Source: a virus (lineage: Duplodnaviria > Heunggongvirae > Uroviricota > Caudoviricetes). From it: DNA of 25,134 nucleotides. The stretch spans positions 1 to 25,134 of the IMG/VR virus record IMGVR_UViG_2737471840_000004, one strand, 5' to 3'. The translations under genes and the position numbers were made by a program. A model generated the notes under the pieces. It was not told the DNA's origin, did no database searches, and saw only the letters and a list, made by a program, of their open reading frames with translations. This document shows positions 12,257 to 25,134 of this stretch, piece after piece. Positions within the stretch are counted from its first letter, which is position 1. Each line of letters begins with the position of its first letter.

Positions 12257-13255
12257 TTATCCGTTACCGCACGACGGTTTCTGCGTGATAAACGTTTCAA
12301 GCATCTTTTCCGCGATTGCCGACCAGGTGTGACACTGGACCTTTTCAGCATTTTTCACGCGATCAACGCGAGCAATAACCTCATCCCAATCAATCCGCGA
12401 CTTGATAACCATATGGTTCACCAACTCCAGGCGATCTGGCGGAAGGCAATCGGGCGGCGTTAATATCAACGCTCCACACATTGCCGCCTCAAGAACAGTT
12501 AATCCAAGGCTTTCGGGATGCGTAACGATAAAAACGTCACTCTTACGCAATTCAGCTGCAAATTCGGTTGCTGGTACCGGAGTCCGTCTGTATGGGGTTA
12601 CCGAAATATTCCCCAGCTCAATGGTAACCAATCCGTCATCGGTCAGCGTTCTGGCCTCATACGGAACGGTCAGGCGCTGAAGGTTCATAAGGATACTTAA
12701 GGAGTGATCAAACCCACTAACATCAAATGCCGCGTGGTCTACAAAAATACGCAGAACATCGTCTGTTTTGGTTTCCAGATGGAACAGCTCCTGATTCGCT
12801 GCCCATCCAACATGTTTGTTAAAACGATTATGACGCTCTAACCTGCCGGGATTATCCAGGTACCGCCAGGTATCATCGCGGACAGTAAAAGTAATATCGA
12901 CTGGTGCCGAATCCAGCATAGAACCGTCGTATACCTGGGCTACCCATCCAGTGAATCGACGACGCAGTTGCACGCCTATTTCCCTGGGCACCGTAGTAAA
13001 ATACCGCAATCCTGGCGCTAAAATGGCCTTCGCAGAACATGCGGTCGCAGCAGTCAACACAGCTTCAACATAATCCTCCGGGCTTTCGACGCCGGGGGAA
13101 TATGGACGATGGTATTGCAATGTTACCCCTGCCTCACTAAAGGCGCAGGCCAGGTTATAAGCCCACATTTCCGTATATGTTTTCACATCACTGATAGCTT
13201 CAAATTTTCGCCCAATGATCAGGATGTTCATCGGCTTTTCCTCATTCCATTGCAT
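12257..13255 (-). CDS. GT-B fold glycosyltransferase (GT4-like)
   Basis: 332-aa ORF; C-terminal HPESLGLTVLEAAMCGALILTP resembles the GT1/GT4 donor-binding signature; TAATG start/stop overlap with the DnaB gene. Confidence 0.75.
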   Translation of the reverse strand: MQWNEEKPMNILIIGRKFEAISDVKTYTEMWAYNLACAFSEAGVTLQYHRPYSPGVESPEDYVEAVLTAATACSAKAILAPGLRYFTTVPREIGVQLRRRFTGWVAQVYDGSMLDSAPVDITFTVRDDTWRYLDNPGRLERHNRFNKHVGWAANQELFHLETKTDDVLRIFVDHAAFDVSGFDHSLSILMNLQRLTVPYEARTLTDDGLVTIELGNISVTPYRRTPVPATEFAAELRKSDVFIVTHPESLGLTVLEAAMCGALILTPPDCLPPDRLELVNHMVIKSRIDWDEVIARVDRVKNAEKVQCHTWSAIAEKMLETFITQKPSCGNG

Positions 13256-14619
13256 TAATAATCCTCTTGCCAGTCAGCACCAGCATAGTTATCAAACCGT
13301 GAGTATTGGCCGTTAAAAGCCAATCTCACCGTGCCAATTGGGCCATTTCGTTGCTTTCCGATAATCACCTCGGCAATGCCCTTCATTTCGCTATCCGGGT
13401 GATAAACTTCGTCGCGATACAGAAACATGATCAGGTCTGCGTCCTGCTCAATTGCTCCTGATTCACGTAAATCTGAATTTACCGGTCGTTTGTCCGCACG
13501 CTGTTCAAGCGATCGATTAAGTTGAGACAATGCCACCACCGGTACTTGTAATTCCTTCGCCAAAGCCTTCAGTGAGCGAGAAATCTCGGCAATTTCCAGC
13601 GTTCGGTTATCTTGCAGCTCGGGGACGCGCATAAGTTGCAGGTAGTCGATCATAATCATGCTCAAACCACCATTTTCTTTATAAACACGACGAGCGCGGG
13701 AACGAAGCTCTGTAGGTGTCAGGGCGCTTGAGTCATCAATAAAAATATTCTGCTTGTCCAACAGAATCCCCATTGCGCCAGAAACCCGCGCCCAATCCTC
13801 GTCGTTAAGTTGCCCTGTTCGAATACGAGTCTGATCAACGCGTGCAAGAGAAGCCAGTGAGCGCATCATCAGCTGGTGGCTCGGCATCTCAAGGCTAAAA
13901 ACCAATACGGGCTTATCGTTACGGACTGCGGCATTTTCGACGAGATTCATCGCAAACGTAGTCTTCCCCATCGATGGGCGGGCGGCGACAATAATGAGAT
14001 CGGACGCCTGAAGTCCTGCTGTCTTCTTATTGAGATCGGTAAATCCGGTATCAAGCCCCGTTACACCATCATGCGGTCGCTGAAACAACTCTTCTATGCG
14101 AGATACCGTTGCATCGAGAATGCTGGCGATATCTTTTGGACCATTACCGCTCTTTTGTCGTTTTTCAGCTATTTCAAAAACGCGGCGCTCGGCCATATCC
14201 AGCAATTCATTGCTGCCCCTGCCATCCTGCGCATATCCAGCTTCAGCTATTTCATTTGCGACGGAAATCATTTCACGAACAACCGCGCGTTCACGAACGA
14301 TATCCGCATAAGCACAAATATTTGCCGCGCTGGGCGTGTTCTTTGACATCTCCGCAAGGTACGCAAAACCACCGGCGCGTTCTAATTTACCGTTCTGTTC
14401 AAGTGCTTCAGCAAGTGTTATCAAATCAATCGGTTTGCCATGACTTAATAACCTCTCCATCTCACTGAAAATTTCACGATGAGCACTGGTATAAAAATCA
14501 TCAGCAACTATACGATCTGCAACTTCATCCCAGCGGCAGTTATCAAGCATTAAGCCACCAAGTACAGCTTGTTCTGCACTAAGGGAGTTTGGCATGGATT
14601 CAAGAGGGGATGCAGACAT
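13255..14619 (-). CDS. dnaB: DnaB-family replicative DNA helicase
   Basis: Walker A ARPSMGKTTFAMNL; N-terminal SAEQAVLGGLMLD is DnaB-like; ATG 14619 preferred (GGAG upstream) over track GTG 14625. Confidence 0.9.
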   Translation of the reverse strand: MSASPLESMPNSLSAEQAVLGGLMLDNCRWDEVADRIVADDFYTSAHREIFSEMERLLSHGKPIDLITLAEALEQNGKLERAGGFAYLAEMSKNTPSAANICAYADIVRERAVVREMISVANEIAEAGYAQDGRGSNELLDMAERRVFEIAEKRQKSGNGPKDIASILDATVSRIEELFQRPHDGVTGLDTGFTDLNKKTAGLQASDLIIVAARPSMGKTTFAMNLVENAAVRNDKPVLVFSLEMPSHQLMMRSLASLARVDQTRIRTGQLNDEDWARVSGAMGILLDKQNIFIDDSSALTPTELRSRARRVYKENGGLSMIMIDYLQLMRVPELQDNRTLEIAEISRSLKALAKELQVPVVALSQLNRSLEQRADKRPVNSDLRESGAIEQDADLIMFLYRDEVYHPDSEMKGIAEVIIGKQRNGPIGTVRLAFNGQYSRFDNYAGADWQEDY

Positions 14620-14904
14620 TAGCACTCCACCCAGGCGTGCTGAATGTCAGATATAATCGGCATACTCAAATCACTCCTAACGATATGAGTCATCACCAGA
14701 AAATCAGGATTAATGCGCCGGACTCTTCCCGGCTGTCACACCGAATCGCCAGGATGGTGAGTCCCTGTATCCGCTATCCCTCCAACGGTGACTTGCACAT
14801 TCCGGCTACCTGGTTTGTTGCCTGAGCTAGGGGAAAAGGTAACCCCTTTAACGTCACCAGACCGCTAACGACGCATGTGCCAGACGCCGTGTTACAACCA
14901 AATA

Positions 14905-14980
14905 TGGTGGCCCCTACCGGACTTGAACCGGTGACCGTGCGATTATGAGTCGCCAGCTCTAACCACTGAGCTAAAGGGCC
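14905..14980 (-). tRNA. tRNA with CAU anticodon (Met, or Ile2 if lysidine-modified)
   Basis: Hand-folded 76-nt cloverleaf: GGCCCTT acceptor, GCTC/GAGC D-stem, anticodon loop CUCAUAA, TTCAAGT T-loop, encoded CCA. From memory it resembles ileX-type tRNA-Ile2. Confidence 0.85.
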
Positions 14981-14983
14981 GGA

Positions 14984-15091
14984 TTACTGTTTCCTAAGTG
15001 CTTCAATGGCGCTAACAATACCGCCTACAACTATGGCAACAATGATAATGAGAACAATTGGATACTTATCTGCAAAATCCCAGAAGCTCAT
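14984..15091 (-). CDS. mini membrane protein (35 aa)
   Basis: Hand translation MSFWDFADKYPIVLIIIVAIVVGGIVSAIEALRKQ; start overlaps the stop of the upstream mini-ORF; stop 3 nt before the tRNA. Confidence 0.4.
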   Translation of the reverse strand: MSFWDFADKYPIVLIIIVAIVVGGIVSAIEALRKQ

Positions 15092-15255
15092 CACTGATCC
15101 TTCGAGGCTGGTTTAAATATCGGCCATACCAATGTTACGGCTACTGCTACCAACGCCCCGTCGGATAAAACCGACAGGATTGTGCTGGTGAAATCCACCA
15201 GCACAGATAGCACGAGAAAAACCAAAGCCAGAATTAGACGTGCTTTTATAACCAT
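15091..15255 (-). CDS. mini membrane protein (54 aa)
   Basis: Hand translation MVIKARLILALVFLVLSVLVDFTSTILSVLSDGALVAVAVTLVWPIFKPASKDQ; ATG overlaps the TerB-like stop. Confidence 0.4.
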   Translation of the reverse strand: MVIKARLILALVFLVLSVLVDFTSTILSVLSDGALVAVAVTLVWPIFKPASKDQ

Positions 15256-15680
15256 CAGATATACTGTTCCAGTGGCAATTGAAGAGCCTGGGCAATTTTC
15301 TTCAATTGCTCCTGCTCTTCTGCCCCAATGCCATCCTGGTCAGCAATATCAATGCATAGGCACAGAACATCTACCGCATCATTAGTTCCAGACACGTCAG
15401 CCAGTTCACGTAAAGCCTGGGCATTCGCTCGGCGCGGCGAGGCTTCATATTGAGCGCGAATATTGGCGCTCATCTGGGCAATTTCACCGGAGAACGGCGC
15501 AAAGGCAGGAAGTGCTGCAATGGTTTTTTCCAATACTGCAATTTCTTTCGCATCGCAGGTGCCGTCAGAGTATGCAATGGAATATGCGCCCCAGACAGTC
15601 GCTTCCACCGCATCACGGTTTTCCATTTTCTTGACTCCGCCAGCCGCTTTGCGGAATTTCTTTTTGAGAATGCCGAGCAT
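15255..15680 (-). CDS. TerB-like domain protein
   Basis: SDGTCDAKEIAVLEKTI and IADQDGIGAEEQEQLKKIAQALQL match the paired TerB acidic motifs; alternative ATG at 15626 (GGAG upstream). Confidence 0.65.
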   Translation of the reverse strand: MLGILKKKFRKAAGGVKKMENRDAVEATVWGAYSIAYSDGTCDAKEIAVLEKTIAALPAFAPFSGEIAQMSANIRAQYEASPRRANAQALRELADVSGTNDAVDVLCLCIDIADQDGIGAEEQEQLKKIAQALQLPLEQYI

Positions 15681-16529
15681 TTATTAACCTCATTACTGGT
15701 TGGGAAATAAGGTTGCGGTGCCGGGTGCCTCCCGGTGTCCTTTGGCTGGTTATCCACCGTGGACGGGGAAATAAGGAGAAATAATGGACAGATATAACCA
15801 TTTCCCCGCGTGCGCTTAGCCGCATTCACCGCAACGGAAAGAGCATTCCTAGTGGACCTGTAGATTGGGATATGAACCCGTTACAGGAGAATGCTCTTAC
15901 CTGTTACGTGCTCCGTTTCGTGGAGCTAACGGCGGGTGATCGGGCCGCACCAGACTGGACTTATTTCAGCGTTATGCTCATGCCAGAGAATCAAACTGTG
16001 ATGGTCGGTGCTGAACTCCGACACAGGGTTGTAGCAAGCCCCGCAAAGCGCGCACTACTGTAGTTGCGGCACATCAGCCTGTGCATTCACCACAATGTTG
16101 AGAACACTGGTTGTCACGCTGCAACGCAACATTTATTCGTAGATTGGGATATGACCCCGTTACGCCAGTGTTCTCAACGTTGTAGTGCCGGTTACGGTTC
16201 CGGCCAGGCCTCTTCCTCAACGGGGTGTTCTCCATACGGACTACCGTTTATTGGTCGTTCCTGCGGTTTATGTTGTGAAGCCAGATGCTTATCTTCTGGT
16301 TGCTTCAAAGAGCTGCACTTCATCACAACGGTAAGAGCACTCGATGCATTTAAGCCAAGCCCCATAAGGGAGAATGCCCTTACCTGTTGTGTTGTGATGA
16401 CCGGTGCTGATCTCCGGCTTGCGGTTATTTCAGACTCTCACGGGCGTTTAATTGCCCCGCCGAACAGCTCTTTTCCGCAATAGCTGCAATGTCTTTCGCG
16501 CATCAGCCTGCGCATTCATCACAACGGTA

Positions 16530-16607
16530 AGGGTACTTCGTAGGGATTCGAACCCTCTGCCAAGCTCGGCGATCTCCGACGTCGCAAAATACCCTTACCT
16601 GTTGTGC
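16530..16607 (-). pseudogene. tRNA-like remnant (acceptor plus T-arm, no anticodon arm)
   Basis: Minus strand has GGTTCGAATCC T-loop and a TATTTTG/CGAAGTA acceptor-like pairing but only 27 nt where 41 are needed, and no CCA. Confidence 0.3.
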
Positions 16608-16683
16608 TGGTGCCGATTAACGGACTCGAACCGCTGACATCCTGCTTACAAGGCAGGCGCTCTACCAACTGAGCTAAACCGGC
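16608..16683 (-). tRNA. tRNA-Thr (anticodon UGU)
   Basis: Hand-folded 76-nt cloverleaf: GCCGGTT/AATCGGC acceptor, anticodon stem CCTGC/GCAGG, loop CUUGUAA, TTCGAGT T-loop, encoded CCA. Confidence 0.85.
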
Positions 16684-16685
16684 AT

Positions 16686-16761
16686 TGGCGATGGTGGATG
16701 GATTTGAACCATCGACCCGTTGATTAACAGTCAACCGCTCTAACCGCTGAGCTACACCATC
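16686..16761 (-). tRNA. tRNA-Asn (anticodon GUU)
   Basis: Hand-folded 76-nt cloverleaf: perfect GATGGTG/CACCATC acceptor, anticodon stem GTTGA/TCAAC, loop CUGUUAA, TTCAAAT T-loop, encoded CCA; 2 nt from tRNA-Thr. Confidence 0.85.
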
Positions 16762-17226
16762 ACTTGCCGGGTACGTCTCCGGCGAGGGCTTCCACCTCCG
16801 TATGCTTTTCGGCGCACCGCGCCCTGGCTGCAATTCGGTAACAGGGGATGCACAACCCTGGCTTCCAGCGTGATTAGCGCCTTCAGCATGACGGGATATA
16901 CCCGTAAATTCGTGGAACTGTACCCAAAGTGCTGTTAAGCACCGCTGTTACGCTGAAAAGAAAACGCAACAGGAAAGGACGCTGACCAACAGATGGCCCC
17001 TTCTCGTTCATCTGGTTAATCACACCAGCGCCCTTACCTGTTGTGCCTCCCCGTTCCCTAATACACAGACGGGGACACTCTGCGGTCGATTTTTTGACGG
17101 GGGACGACTCATACCCCGTGGCGTCTGGCTTCTTAGGCCGCTACCATCATCAGATCATCGTTTGCATTTACTTTAATGGTCAGTTTCTAAACCGCCGCAA
17201 AGTCGCTAACCATGACGAAAACCCTG

Positions 17227-17252
17227 AAAAAAACGCCCACCCGAAGATGGGC
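17227..17252 (-). terminator. rho-independent terminator on minus strand
   Basis: Minus strand GCCCATC-TTCG-GGTGGGC (7-bp stem with one G-U pair) followed by GTTTTTTT; in the plus sense the wobble becomes a C-A mismatch. Confidence 0.55.
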
Positions 17253-17409
17253 AAACTGGAAGCTCGTAACGCACTTCGGCGTTGCCACTTAGGCGCATGG
17301 TCAACCTGGCAACTCGGTGGTTTGTCTGGGAGGACTAGGCCCAGCCATGCTTACCGCCGCGCCTGTCGCGGCTAACAGCTAAATCGCTCTATAAATCACG
17401 ATTCATTGA

Positions 17410-17443
17410 GGCGATATTACACTAATAAATTTATTAGAGCAAT
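17410..17443 (-). promoter_or_regulatory. putative leftward promoter with palindromic operator
   Basis: Minus strand TTGCTC, 17 nt, TAATAT; the core motif is part of the perfect 16-bp palindrome CTAATAAATTTATTAG (17422-17437) and overlaps the last codons of the methyltransferase gene. Confidence 0.45.
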
Positions 17444-19698
17444 ATACCCAAAACGTCATGAGCTACACCTCGAGTGTCCCCCTTACAAGACACAGAACGT
17501 CTGGCAAAAAGAGGTTCCACTCTGAAGCCACTGTCATGATAAAGCTCTCTGATGTTTGGCGCGCCACTGTTAGTAATGAGAACCTTTGCACCTCGACGAT
17601 GAGCATCCGTCAACAGAGACACCAGGCGTTTTTGCTCTTCAAACTTAAAGTCATGACCGGAATAGTTCGTGAATCCCTCTGTATTTGGAAGCGGTTCATA
17701 CGGCGGATCGCAAAAGATGACATCTCCTTCTCCGGCAGCTTCAATCACCGCAGCAAAATCACCGCATACAAACTCAGACCGCCCTTCCGCACCGAGGAAG
17801 GCTTCCATCTCCTGTAATGGGAAATACGGAGTTTTATACTTCCCATAACCGACATTGAACTCACCGGCCTGGTTGTAACGCGTCAATCCGTTAAAACAAT
17901 GTCGGTTCAGGAACAAAAACGCCGCTGCGCGATGTAAATCATCATAGACTTGTTTGTTAAACGCATTCCGTACTGCCAGGTATCCTTCCTGTGTGTTGTA
18001 GTCCTGGAAGAAACGATGTGCCAGAGTGATAAGTGAATGCGCCTCGCGTTGCAGAGTCTTGTAAAAGTTAATCAGGTCAGCATTCACATCATTTAGCAGA
18101 TTTTCCTGGTATCCGGCATTCATGAAGACAGCTCCGCCACCAACGAAAGGTTCAATCAGGCGCTTCCCTTCTGGCAAATAGCGAAAGATTTGTTCCAGAA
18201 CACCAAATTTTCCACCAGCCCATTTGAATATGGACCGTTCGAATTCTGCCGCTGGTTTAACTTTTCGCTCTTTTGTTTCACTTCCTTCTTTCTGCCGACA
18301 TACGGCCTTAGTAATCCGATCGCCAATCCAGCGCATTACTGGTATTGCCATACTATTGCCGATCGCTTTGTAACGCGGTCCGTCAGCTGCAAGCATCGCG
18401 GCCTCTTCTTCGCTTAAATCTGGATAGTGATTGCGAAGATATGCCAGTTCATCTGAATTAACTTTTTTACGCTTTTCCGTCGGGATCAACGTATGCCCAT
18501 CAGGAAAACCTTGCAGCCTTTCACATTCGACAGGGGTAAGACGGCGGACAGCTACTTCTGCGTTTCTTACTTCATAGCAAACAGCTGTTGGATTTTTAGC
18601 CATTAGAGATGGTGAAGTATTCTTAGTTGCAGCATGTTGTGTACCGCTCATACGCTCAGGAAAAGCCAATGTAACAAGATGCTCATGGCTTTCTTGCTCA
18701 CGTGCCCGCAATGTACCATGCCCTTCTGACCAAAAACCTGCTCCTGTGCTGCTAAAAACGGCAAGGTCAGTGGCATCTTTAAAATCTCTTGCCTTTACTG
18801 TCGATGCGGTTTCATCGTCAATATATTCCCCAAATGCTGCCATCCTGAAAGCGTTTACGGCTTTCGTCGATTTCATACCGGGTGGCATGTCAGCGTGTAG
18901 GCATGGATTTAGGCTTTCGCCACTGATTGCAGCGCCATTTGCAATAATGGCGGAAGCGATTTCCTTCTTTTTTCGGCTCGGCGCAATATTCCGGCGCACG
19001 CCTTCGAACTCAAAAAGTACCGTTGCGGGATCGAGGTCTGTTCGAGCACTTGCGACAACAAACACGCGTCGGCGTCGTTGTGCCACTCCGAAGTATTGGG
19101 CATCAAGGATTCTCCAGGCCACCTTTCGCTGCGGTCCATAAATACAACCACACTGTGGCCACTTTGGAGCATGGCAACCGGTTTTGCCATCCCACCGCCA
19201 GAACGCGTTACTTTTTCCTGATTCAGGTCGATCACCTGGTTCAAATGGCGCATCTTCTCCAGCCAATCCGGCAAGGAAACATCCGAAGGCGTTATCTGCC
19301 GATGACAAAACTCCTGGGACATTTTCCCAGACGATAACTGTCGGTTTGAGAAATGACTCAGCCCGTTTGTCGTCAATTGCATTTGCAAGCTCCACATACT
19401 TTAAAGTTAGCGCGCCACGCTCATCATCAAGCCCACCACGTAATCCAGCGATACTGAATGCCTGACAAGGTGTTCCCCCGACGAGCACATCAGGGGATTC
19501 GATTTCCCCAGCCAGGACTTTTTTGGCAAGTTTTGTCATGTCGCCAAGGTTGGCGACATGGGGCCAGCGGTGCGCAAGAACGGCAGATGGAAAAGGCTCG
19601 ATTTCAGCAAACCACGCCGGACGCATACCCAACGGTTCCCAGGCAATACTCGCGGCTTCAATTCCACTGCAAACAGATCCATAGCACAGCTCTTTCAC
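17434..19698 (-). CDS. bifunctional DNA methyltransferase: N-terminal C5-cytosine MTase fused to C-terminal Dam-like N6-adenine MTase
   Basis: 754-aa ORF. N-terminal half has C5-MTase motifs ([48 protein letters not shown]); C-terminal ~270 aa has Dam-type FKWAGGK and DPPY. ATGA overlap with rdgC. Confidence 0.9.
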
Positions 19699-20935: not shown

Positions 20936-20966
20936 GACATAAAAAACAATATTTATTAGAGCAATT
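20936..20966 (-). promoter_or_regulatory. putative leftward promoter with ATTGCTCTAATAA motif
   Basis: Minus strand TTGCTC, 17 nt, TATGTC; near-identical over 20 bp to the 1602-1621 copy; heads the ORFan-rdgC-MTase operon. Confidence 0.4.
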
Positions 20967-22767: not shown

Positions 22768-23148
22768 ATGTCTGATAAAGTAACAGTAAAGCAAACTATC
22801 AACAAAGCGACTTCAATCTACAAAATTGAGCAAATCACTGTTGGCAAGCCAGGATCTGAACAATACCGTCGTGCTTTCGAGCTTGCCGATCAGCTTGGTT
22901 TAAAACACCCGGATTGCATTGAGCATGTATTTCCGACCTATGCTGATGAGCAATGTACTCATGTTCTTACCGAAGAGGATTTTTTCAGCACTGAAGAACG
23001 AGAAGGCGTTGATCGCTGTATTGGTGTGATTTGCTCTTCAGTGAGTTATGAGTTATTCCCTAATGTCCATGAAGATGGTGGTATTGGATACCAATTCCTG
23101 TACGAAGGCGATGAGCTTAAATGTTATCAAGCATCGCCGGAATTTTAG
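22768..23148 (+). CDS. hypothetical protein
   Basis: 126-aa ORF with AGGGA 6 nt upstream; acidic, several Cys; last rightward gene before the apparent chromosomal junction. Confidence 0.5.
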   Translation: MSDKVTVKQTINKATSIYKIEQITVGKPGSEQYRRAFELADQLGLKHPDCIEHVFPTYADEQCTHVLTEEDFFSTEEREGVDRCIGVICSSVSYELFPNVHEDGGIGYQFLYEGDELKCYQASPEF

Positions 23149-23635: not shown

Positions 23636-23830
23636 AAACGTTTCGCATTCAGAAGAGGGGCAATCGACTTTCTGGTTTCAGAAAGCCCTTCATCATAGAG
23701 AACTCCGATGAGTGCCAAATGCGGGAACTACGCCGCTAATTATGCTTAATTCTTGCTTTTAGCAGGCGGTGAATAAAAAGGTTGAAATTCATTTTCTTCC
23801 GGGCAAAAATGCCATTTCACACATTAGCTT

Positions 23831-23874
23831 TGCAGGACGACCTGCAAACGCTTCTTTCACCGGGGACGGCCCCA
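23831..23874 (+). promoter_or_regulatory. guanidine-II riboswitch (mini-ykkC) upstream of sugE/gdx
   Basis: Two hairpins with ACGR tetraloops: tgcagg-ACGA-cctgca (23831-23846) and gggg-ACGG-cccc (23862-23873), 15-nt linker, then GGAG and ATG at 23892. Confidence 0.6.
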
Positions 23875-23891: not shown

Positions 23892-23938
23892 ATGTCCTGG
23901 ATCGTTTTATTAATTGCAGGTTTGCTCGAAGTTGTCTG
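23892..23938 (+). pseudogene. sugE: sugE/gdx 5' fragment, interrupted by IS insertion
   Basis: MSWIVLLIAGLLEVV matches the SugE/Gdx N-terminus; the frame then runs into the IS end GTAAGCG at 23938 where the conserved Trp codon would be. Confidence 0.7.
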
Positions 23939-25134
23939 TAAGCGTCAACGGAGCACCGTATTGACGCTTATTTATTGGTGAGTACTACGTTCCATGGCAG
24001 GAGTTCGTCAACTCGGTTGGAAGGCCATTCCGGCAGTACGCTCAGGATATGGCGCATATACGCTTCCGGATCGATACCGTTCAGACGGCAGGTGCCGATC
24101 AGCCCGTACAACAGTGCTCCACGCTCGCCGCCGTGATCGCTGCCAAAGAACATAAAGTTTTTCTTTCCGAGACAGACTGCACGAAGCGCTCTTTCCGCAG
24201 CATTATTATCCGCCTCCGCCAGACCGTCATCACTGTAATAACAGAGGGCATCCCACTGATTCAGTACATAGCTGAACGCTTCGCCCAGTCTGGATTTTTT
24301 CGACAGCGTACCATTCTTCTCCACCATCCATTCATGCAGCGACGTCAGTAACACTTTGCTTCGCTGCTGCCTGACGGCAAGACGCTCTGACTCCGGTAAT
24401 CCCCGTATTTCATCCTCGATGGCGTACAGTTCACTGATTCGCTTCAGGGCTTCTTCTGCCGTCGCACTTTTGCTGCTGATGTATACATCGTGGATTTTTC
24501 GCCGGGCATGGGCCCAGCACGCAACTTCTGTCAGTGCACCACCTTCACGTTCTGCACTGAACAACCTGTCGTAACCTGTGAACGCATCCGCCTGCAGGAT
24601 ACCCCGGAAGGGGCGGAGGTGTTGCTCCGGGTGTTTCCCCTGCCGGTTCGGCGAGTACGCGAACCAGACCGCTGGAGGAGATGACGAACCCACATTGCGA
24701 TCATCCCGGACATACGTCCAGATACGCCCTGTTTTCGCCTTTTTCTGACCCGGTGCCAGTACCTTTACCGGTGTGTCATCAGTGTGAACCTTGCGGGTGT
24801 TCATTACATAACGGTACAGGGCATCATTCACCGGTGTCATTAACTGGCAGCACGCGTCAACCCAGTTGGAGAGTAAGGCCCGGCTCAGTTCGACACCCTG
24901 GCGGGCAAAGATTTCACTCTGACGATACAGTGGCAGATGTTCGCAGTATTTTCCCGTTAACACGCGGGCAAGTAATCCGGGGCCCGCGATACCACGCTCT
25001 ATCGGGCGGGACGGCGCCGGTGCTTCAACAATACAGTCACATTTTGTACAGGCTTTTTTTACCCGTTCTGTGCGGATCACTTTCAGGGCACTGCTCACCA
25101 GTTCCAGCTGTTCAGCGCTGACTTCCCCCAGATA
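23938..25134. mobile_element. IS66-family insertion sequence, right end only (continues beyond right edge)
   Basis: Terminus begins GTAAGCGTCAACGG (IS66-family ends begin GTAA); contains a minus-strand IS66 transposase ORF whose stop lies 30 bp inside the end. Confidence 0.8.
23968..25134 (-). CDS. IS66-family transposase (TnpC), C-terminal portion
   Basis: Contains CWAHARRK and DDTPVKVLAPGQKKAKTGRIW; the frame stays open upstream of the track start (a GTG at 25098) to the window edge, so the N-terminus is outside the window. Confidence 0.9.
   Translation of the reverse strand, partial: YLGEVSAEQLELVSSALKVIRTERVKKACTKCDCIVEAPAPSRPIERGIAGPGLLARVLTGKYCEHLPLYRQSEIFARQGVELSRALLSNWVDACCQLMTPVNDALYRYVMNTRKVHTDDTPVKVLAPGQKKAKTGRIWTYVRDDRNVGSSSPPAVWFAYSPNRQGKHPEQHLRPFRGILQADAFTGYDRLFSAEREGGALTEVACWAHARRKIHDVYISSKSATAEEALKRISELYAIEDEIRGLPESERLAVRQQRSKVLLTSLHEWMVEKNGTLSKKSRLGEAFSYVLNQWDALCYYSDDGLAEADNNAAERALRAVCLGKKNFMFFGSDHGGERGALLYGLIGTCRLNGIDPEAYMRHILSVLPEWPSNRVDELLPWNVVLTNK

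Follow-up and report, generated by a model that had tools for sequence, protein, structure and literature searches.

A CAU-anticodon tRNA gene of a P1-type phage-plasmid, very probably the tRNA-Ile2 gene trnI, and the structured RNA-like element that follows it

The tRNA gene at positions 14905-14980 carries the anticodon CAU, and the question raised by this locus is whether it encodes a tRNA-Met or an AUA-decoding tRNA-Ile2, as the initial annotation had suspected from the tRNA body. The window, the whole 25,134-nt stretch of DNA analysed here, belongs to a P1-type phage-plasmid and is inverted with respect to P1. From position 1 to approximately 23134 it shares 98% identity with P1, P7, RCS47, and SJ46; from approximately 23134 on, it is no longer P1-like. 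The 3.5 kb around the tRNAs (14000-17500) are 100% identical to the E. coli plasmid pUTAK-22-3, and 30-mer spot checks showed collinearity between the window and this plasmid up to approximately 23000. Compared with P1, the source plasmid contains indels in the flanks and a non-P1 insertion past position 23134.

Isotype of the CAU-anticodon tRNA

Three tRNA genes were predicted by ARAGORN in the window, all of them on the minus strand, where the gene order is tRNA-Asn, tRNA-Thr, tciA, tciB, trnI, and ban. The genes tciA and tciB lie directly upstream of trnI on the same strand. The features of this region are as follows:

16686-16761, minus strand: tRNA-Asn(GUU), reads AAC and AAU (ARAGORN, Rfam)
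16608-16683, minus strand: tRNA-Thr(UGU), reads ACA, same operon region as trnI (ARAGORN, Rfam)
15255-15680, minus strand: tciA, TerB family (pUTAK-22-3 RefSeq annotation mapped to the window; P1 annotation)
15091-15255, minus strand: tciB, DUF3927 (pUTAK-22-3 RefSeq annotation mapped to the window; P1 annotation)
14905-14980, minus strand: trnI, assigned to tRNA-Ile2, anticodon CAU, 3′ CCA encoded (ARAGORN; Rfam; P1 GenBank and RefSeq annotation)
13255-14619, minus strand: ban, DnaB-type replicative helicase, downstream of trnI (ORF; pUTAK-22-3 and P1 annotation)

The CAU-anticodon tRNA is a genuine gene with exactly the boundaries first given for it, and both neighboring tRNAs, the tRNA-Asn and the tRNA-Thr(UGU), proved to be real as well. 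ARAGORN places a 76-nt tRNA with the anticodon CAT exactly at these positions of the minus strand and labels it tRNA-Met. The gene matches the Rfam family RF00005 with 64.7 bits against a gathering score of 29 (E = 3.5e-12). The minimum-energy fold of the single sequence is a cloverleaf (-30.3 kcal/mol, z = -2.6), and all universal residues are present: U8, A14, G18G19, A21, U33, G53, U54-U55-C56, A58, and C61.

The trnI gene was found in 541 of 5426 complete E. coli genomes at 557 places, of which 546 are on plasmids and 11 are chromosomal. Three variant alleles were examined, two from P1-like plasmids and one from the Yersinia phage vB_YpM_41. In the two plasmid alleles, the differences from the trnI of the window are confined to positions 20a, 26, and 59, which are variable and unpaired; the phage allele differs also at positions 6 and 50, with pairing kept. 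The upstream flank of both plasmid alleles is essentially unrelated to that of the window (45-46 of 150 positions matching without gaps), and the downstream flank is largely kept in one of them (125 of 150 positions).

A tRNA gene on a phage might also be a relic without function, or a piece of a host tRNA gene kept as an attachment site. The 11 chromosomal places would fit this, as would the small Yersinia phages in which a similar tRNA is reduced to its 3′ 46-47 nt, which is the usual appearance of attP. The trnI gene of the window is, however, full length, with an intact cloverleaf, all universal residues and an encoded CCA, and the pairing of its T-stem is kept by compensatory changes. It has been conserved across the 541 genomes, and the flanks around it diverge. 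P1 persists as a plasmid without integrating at a tRNA, which also counts against an attachment site. The relic or attachment-site explanation was rejected for this full-length, conserved gene and is considered extremely improbable. The partial genes themselves were observed in Yersinia phages of about 30 kb (OM046628.1, 30234-30280; PP599997.1, 8787-8832) with 91% identity to the tRNA-Ile2-like gene. This fragment looks like an attP core for integration into a host ileX-type gene.

The body of trnI resembles the lysidine-type tRNA-Ile2 more than either kind of tRNA-Met, in agreement with the initial annotation. The gene is identical to ileX and to ileY of K-12 at 68 of 76 positions (8 differences). 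It matches the elongator genes metT/metU in 55 of 77 aligned columns (22 differences) and the initiator genes metZ/metV in 44-45 of 77 columns, 32 of 77 columns differing in the tRNA-fMet comparison. The ratio of the differences to the Ile and Met references, calculated with E. coli references only, is 0.36 (8 versus 22), which is on the Ile side. According to the criterion of Silva et al. 2006, established on a set of 234 genomes, ratios of 0.6-0.9 indicate Ile and ratios of 1.2-1.5 indicate Met (PMC1635315).

The identity elements agree with the overall similarity. The E. coli TilS determinants, which had been proposed as a check, are the pairs C4-G69 and C5-G68 (PMC2500205 and PMC1635315, both citing Ikeuchi 2005; PMC11947777), and both are present in trnI. 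The pairs U4-A69 and A5-U68, which block TilS and serve as MetRS elements (PMC2500205, PMC1635315, PMC9976931), are absent. The gene carries the full bacterial identity set for IleRS, comprising A73, C4-G69, U12-A23, C29-G41, A35, U36, A37, and A38 (PMC9976931, Table 1); the D-loop elements G16/U20/U21 in the same table belong to the major tRNA-Ile. Acetylation of C34 of tRNA-Met by TmcA (ac4C34) requires C27-G43, C30-G40, and G44 (PMC2500205). None of these is found in trnI, which has G27·A43, G30-C40, and C44 instead. The marks of the initiator tRNA-fMet, namely the C1xA72 mismatch, A11-U24, and three G-C pairs at 29-31/39-41 (PMC1635315), are likewise absent, the corresponding positions of trnI being G1-C72, C11-G24, and CGA/UCG. 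Two features of trnI may affect the efficiency of lysidine formation. The U6·G67 wobble adjoins the TilS determinants, and the G27·A43 mismatch lies in the anticodon stem, where mutations reportedly make tRNA a poorer substrate of E. coli TilS (PMC11947777). The pair 27-43 is also G·A in the Yersinia phage vB_YpM_41 and is A·C in the ileZ gene of Shiga-toxin phages.

The gene could alternatively encode an elongator tRNA-Met reading AUG. This is how ARAGORN labels it, and the tRNA-Met annotation is also given to relatives of trnI, among them those in the Yersinia phage vB_YpM_41 and Stx2 phage 86; furthermore, unmodified tRNA-Ile2 can accept Met in vitro (PMC9976931). The label given by ARAGORN is, however, derived from the anticodon only. 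The 22 differences from metT/metU versus 8 from ileX/ileY and the absence of the MetRS acceptor-stem pairs and of all three TmcA determinants, with both TilS determinants in place, argue against an elongator tRNA-Met, which we regard as very unlikely. Both the initiator and the elongator interpretation were rejected on the identity elements. On the basis of its sequence, the gene at 14905-14980 is thus very probably trnI of a P1-type phage-plasmid, a tRNA-Ile2.

Codon use and the proposed supply of an AUA decoder

Temperate phages carry tRNAs for codons that their genes use more often than the host. Codons were counted in the 99 intact coding sequences of pUTAK-22-3 (26,609 codons), which represent the phage-plasmid. 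The host baseline consisted of 90 coding sequences of core genes from two 50-kb stretches of K-12 (29,174 codons), which is a sample of K-12 and not the whole genome of the natural host. The values, phage-plasmid versus host, are as follows:

AUA: 10.2 versus 2.6 per 1000 codons; 16.8% versus 4.4% of Ile codons; odds ratio 4.4, p = 4e-33
ACA: 15.5 versus 5.2 per 1000 codons (3.0x); 26% versus 10% of Thr codons
AAU: 24.5 versus 14.1 per 1000 codons (1.7x); 53% versus 39% of Asn codons
AAC: 21.8 versus 21.8 per 1000 codons (1.0x); 47% versus 61% of Asn codons

The initial annotation had proposed that the three tRNAs together supplement the decoding of the genes of the phage-plasmid. The counts agree with this for AUA, which is enriched about fourfold, and for ACA; the agreement is weaker for Asn, where AAU is enriched and AAC is not. 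Both checks proposed with the initial annotation, isotype and codon usage, came out in its favor. Total Asn is approximately 1.3 times higher in the phage-plasmid than in the K-12 sample. Among all codons, AGG and AGA show the highest enrichment, followed by AUA in third and ACA in fourth place, and the phage-plasmid carries no tRNA for AGG/AGA despite their rank. AUA is present in 82 of the 99 genes of the phage-plasmid and in 44 of the 90 host genes. Genome-wide, the frequency of AUA in K-12 is about 4-5 per 1000 codons, so the true excess is probably two- to fourfold. The G+C content of the phage-plasmid is 47.5% versus 52% in the host, and the observed AUA share of 16.8% compares with 29.9% expected from the composition of the third position. 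Since the excess of AUA tracks the lower G+C content and AUA is still under-used with respect to composition, the excess may be compositional rather than adaptive, and trnI may compensate for it.

In the K-12 host, AUA is served by two minor tRNA genes only. A tblastn search of the phage-plasmid did not find a homolog of TilS (best E = 2.5); trnI must therefore be modified by the host enzyme. Following the established pathway for ileX, we propose that host TilS would convert C34 of trnI into lysidine. This modification would switch the charging of the tRNA from Met to Ile and its decoding from AUG to AUA. As the codon counts suggest, trnI would then raise the AUA-reading capacity for the genes of the phage-plasmid, which use AUA approximately four times more than core host genes. 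Dependence on host TilS may also explain how close trnI has remained to its host counterpart. The identity of trnI to ileX is 89.5%, that of the tRNA-Thr(UGU) to K-12 thrU is 81.6%, and that of the tRNA-Asn(GUU) to K-12 asnT is 63.2%; trnI may be the closest because it is the only one of the three that has to stay a substrate of a host modification enzyme reading the acceptor stem.

The control of trnI can be considered from its position with respect to the following features:

17416-17443: bivalent C1 operator Oban (formerly Op72ab), overlapping the P1ban/P2ban promoters, consensus ATTGCTCTAATAAATTT
1605-1621, 3698-3714, 3747-3763, 7371-7387, 17416-17443, 20949-20965: matches to the C1 operator
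17234-17253, minus strand: terminator-like hairpin, 8-pair stem with TTTTTTT directly behind it, located where the P1 'dicF-like region' ends

Oban consists of two overlapping matches to the C1 consensus, with 0 and 2 mismatches, and the homologous site of P1 is annotated as Obanab with P1ban/P2ban. In total, the window contains seven C1 operator matches that have no more than 3 mismatches, the bivalent ban site included, against 0.16 expected by chance. Because trnI is located downstream of the C1-repressed ban promoter and operator and on the same strand, its supply probably rises upon derepression or induction, as far as position can indicate. The stretch from the ban promoter to the tRNAs also contains the hairpin at 17234-17253 and the opposite-strand genes plp and upl, which count against co-transcription from this promoter; the P1 annotation includes the dicF-like feature. 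A sigma-70 scan called no promoter beside trnI, and the same scan missed the annotated P1ban. Just upstream of tciA, a sub-threshold match to the Rfam family STnc100 was observed at 15714-15833 on the minus strand (39.2 bits against a gathering score of 47, E = 2.5e-6). This location suggests that it may be the 5′ leader of tciA, the gene of the TerB family.

The trnI gene could also be a working tRNA-Ile2 that serves mainly as insurance, replacing host tRNA that has been cleaved or depleted during infection by anticodon nucleases, by other defences that target tRNAs or through shut-off of the host. In other phages, tRNAs are known that evade anticodon nucleases. The set of tRNAs is not fully accounted for by the enriched codons, given that AGG/AGA have no tRNA and that a tRNA-Asn is carried without enrichment of AAC. 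Moreover, trnI shares the operon region with TerB-like 'tellurite/colicin resistance' genes, and the phage anticodon stem differs from that of the host (G27·A43). The anticodon loop CUCAUAA, the usual target of such nucleases, is, however, identical to the loop of the host tRNA, and we know of no nuclease that targets tRNA-Ile2. Insurance as the main role is considered unlikely; it and codon supply are not mutually exclusive.

RNA-like elements beside and beyond trnI

The spacer between trnI and ban contains a second feature, which lies directly 3′ of the tRNA. It is physically linked to trnI but separate from the tRNA itself:

14714-14891, minus strand: structured RNA-like element, 178 nt, between trnI and ban (covariance model, alignment covariation)

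The structure of this element is apparent only from the covariation in an alignment. In the alignment of 20 diverse copies, six helices were recognized, with 98.7% of the cells paired and 9 pairs (47 cells) showing compensatory changes. None of 500 shuffles reached these values, and slid controls were 31-43% paired. The covariance model built from the alignment finds a single copy in the window with 135.4 bits (E = 6e-40). A candidate pseudoknot is indicated by one covarying pair, and the modeled element is probably pseudoknotted. Folding the trnI-ban spacer as a single sequence gave no improvement over shuffles (z = -0.26), and this measure alone would have wrongly led to dismissal of the element. 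A coding interpretation was rejected as no frame is consistently open or conserved and the copy in the window has stops in all six frames.

The RNA-like element is unannotated in all records inspected. No family of Rfam 15 matched the window copy or the copies of four other phages at E <= 1, and a literal search of papers for the invariant 19-mer GGTAGCCGGAATGTGCAAG returned nothing. The element shares about 80% identity with unannotated intergenic DNA of unrelated phages. Related DNA occurs in Stx2 phages (downstream of cI), cdtI, TL-2011b, Salmonella SPN1S, and in Stenotrophomonas and Enterobacter phages. At least 120 IMG/VR contigs contain the 19-mer, as do 24 species-representative genomes, almost all of them from Enterobacterales. 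Megablast with the Stx2-phage copy as query detected the element in 1376 of 5426 E. coli genomes. Other copies, approximately 150-180 nt long, are located as follows:

P1 (AF234172): 71022-71200
Locus L020: 1513-1684
Locus L021: 1500-1672
Locus L022: 1439-1599
Locus L023 (Stenotrophomonas phage vB_SmeS_BUCT709): 1442-1592

In most copies outside P1, a long closing helix that encloses a variable insert comes after the core, with a cargo behind it. Among the matches listed, 25 of 120 loci have a tRNA-Arg(UCU) as cargo; it shares the strand of the element in every case, lies downstream of it, and starts 165-222 nt after the invariant 19-mer. Among the matches listed, 16 of the 120 loci have a P1-type CAU tRNA ahead of the core. 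Both tRNA partners of the element, the CAU tRNA and the tRNA-Arg(UCU), read rare codons. The cargo differs in the Stenotrophomonas phage vB_SmeS_BUCT709, in which the element is upstream of an RprA-like 3′ domain with an intrinsic terminator.

Directly after the element of this phage, positions 1631-1750 of the locus give a sub-threshold match to RprA (RF00034, 50.2 bits against a gathering score of 70) that includes the motif UGCUGUGUGUAGUCUUGGC. Similar 3′ tails were observed in two further IMG/VR loci, L027 and L090. One viral contig (L040) contains two copies of the element on the minus strand, at 3997-4154 and 4804-4959, which are approximately 650 nt apart and score 121 and 156 bits, and in several other loci the closing-helix motif occurs just upstream of the core. 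The double copy and the upstream motifs suggest tandem units.

It is tentatively conceivable, though the odds are rather against it, that trnI forms one half of a two-part RNA module in which the element represents an undescribed class of phage RNA working with rare-codon tRNAs or small-RNA cargo. The element could serve as a processing or stabilizing platform, as a cis-acting transcription element, or as a ribozyme.

A further RNA feature was observed beyond the P1-like part of the window. A guanidine-II (mini-ykkC) riboswitch at 23829-23873 on the plus strand (47.2 bits) is in its normal place upstream of the start of sugE/gdx. The ATG of this gene at 23892 (plus strand) reads MSWIVLLIAGLLEVV, and the gene extends to approximately 23937. 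It is broken after about 15 codons by ISEc23 (99% identical), an insertion sequence of the IS66 family that covers approximately 23905-25134 and encodes the following gene:

23968-25098, minus strand: IS66 transposase ORF (Pfam DDE_Tnp_IS66)

With sugE/gdx interrupted by ISEc23, the riboswitch is orphaned.

Comparison with known tRNA genes

The trnI gene itself is already known. The genes of P1 (AF234172 / NC_005856) and P7 are 100% identical over 76 nt to the gene of the window. The GenBank entry AF234172 describes trnI of P1 as 'tRNA-ile2 (CAT) gene; 89 pct identical (0 gaps) to ileX gene', and all inspected RefSeq records of P1-like plasmids label the gene tRNA-Ile. With 76 of 76 positions shared with P1 trnI, the suggestion of the initial annotation had already been published as an annotation. 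The result is therefore an ordinary finding without novelty that confirms an annotation of 2004 and adds little new for the tRNA.

The implications lie in the distribution and labeling of such genes. About 10% of complete E. coli genomes (541/5426) carry an extra AUA decoder on a P1-like plasmid, plasmids accounting for 546 of its 557 places, and this decoder could matter for the expression of AUA-rich foreign genes. CAU tRNAs of the ileX type that are 85-95% identical were observed in many phage genomes under the label tRNA-Met and without annotation in others, as illustrated by the relatives of trnI in the following records:

OR545054.1: 43084-43159
NC_008464.1: 59897-59972
LC567837.1: 16350-16425

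The pairs C4-G69 and C5-G68 are present in the phage relatives labeled tRNA-Met wherever they were examined. The tRNA-Met labels on phage CAU genes of the ileX type are a systematic annotation error for AUA decoders. Since callers of the ARAGORN type, which use the anticodon only, and many phage records give tRNA-Met, codon-supply analyses based on such labels miss AUA. The part of this work that could lead somewhere new is the unannotated structured RNA, which many enterobacterial phages carry in linkage with rare-codon tRNAs.

The nearest cellular relatives of trnI are ileX and ileY. These genes share with trnI the D-arm, the anticodon loop CUCAUAA, identical stem pairs from 28-42 to 31-39, and C4-G69, C5-G68, A73, U12-A23, and C29-G41; the pair 27-43 is non-Watson-Crick in all of them. 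It is a G·A mismatch in trnI and a G·U wobble in ileX and ileY. Position 6-67 is a U·G wobble in trnI, C-G in ileX, and U-A in ileY, and trnI has U26 and C44, whereas the host genes have A and U, respectively. In the T-stem, both sides of two pairs are changed with respect to ileX and pairing is kept (49-65 from G-C to A-U; 51-63 from U-A to C-G); these two compensatory pairs account for 4 of the 8 differences between trnI and ileX. Unlike ileX and ileY, trnI is located on a phage-plasmid downstream of a repressor-controlled promoter. The elongator genes metT/metU have the anticodon, the loop CUCAUAA, A73, and the D-stem in common with trnI; their U4-A69, A5-U68, C27-G43, C30-G40, and G44 are all missing from it.

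The context of trnI in P1 is like that in the window: tciA, tciB, (tciC), trnI, and ban follow downstream of the tRNA-Asn, the tRNA-Thr and the C1 operator Oban, and AF234172 places trnI between tciC and ban. The nearest functional analog is ileZ of Shiga-toxin phages, a phage-borne CAU tRNA gene of the ileX type that is identical to trnI at 65 of 76 positions (85.5%) and shares C4-G69, C5-G68 and a non-Watson-Crick 27-43 (A·C) with it. The rationale for ileZ is the supply of a rare-codon tRNA for phage genes. Together with two tRNA-Arg genes that serve AGA/AGG, ileZ forms the cluster ileZ-argN-argO, which occupies the interval from the late antiterminator gene to stx and is thus upstream of stx. 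Unlike this cluster, P1 pairs trnI with a tRNA-Asn and a tRNA-Thr and has no tRNA-Arg.
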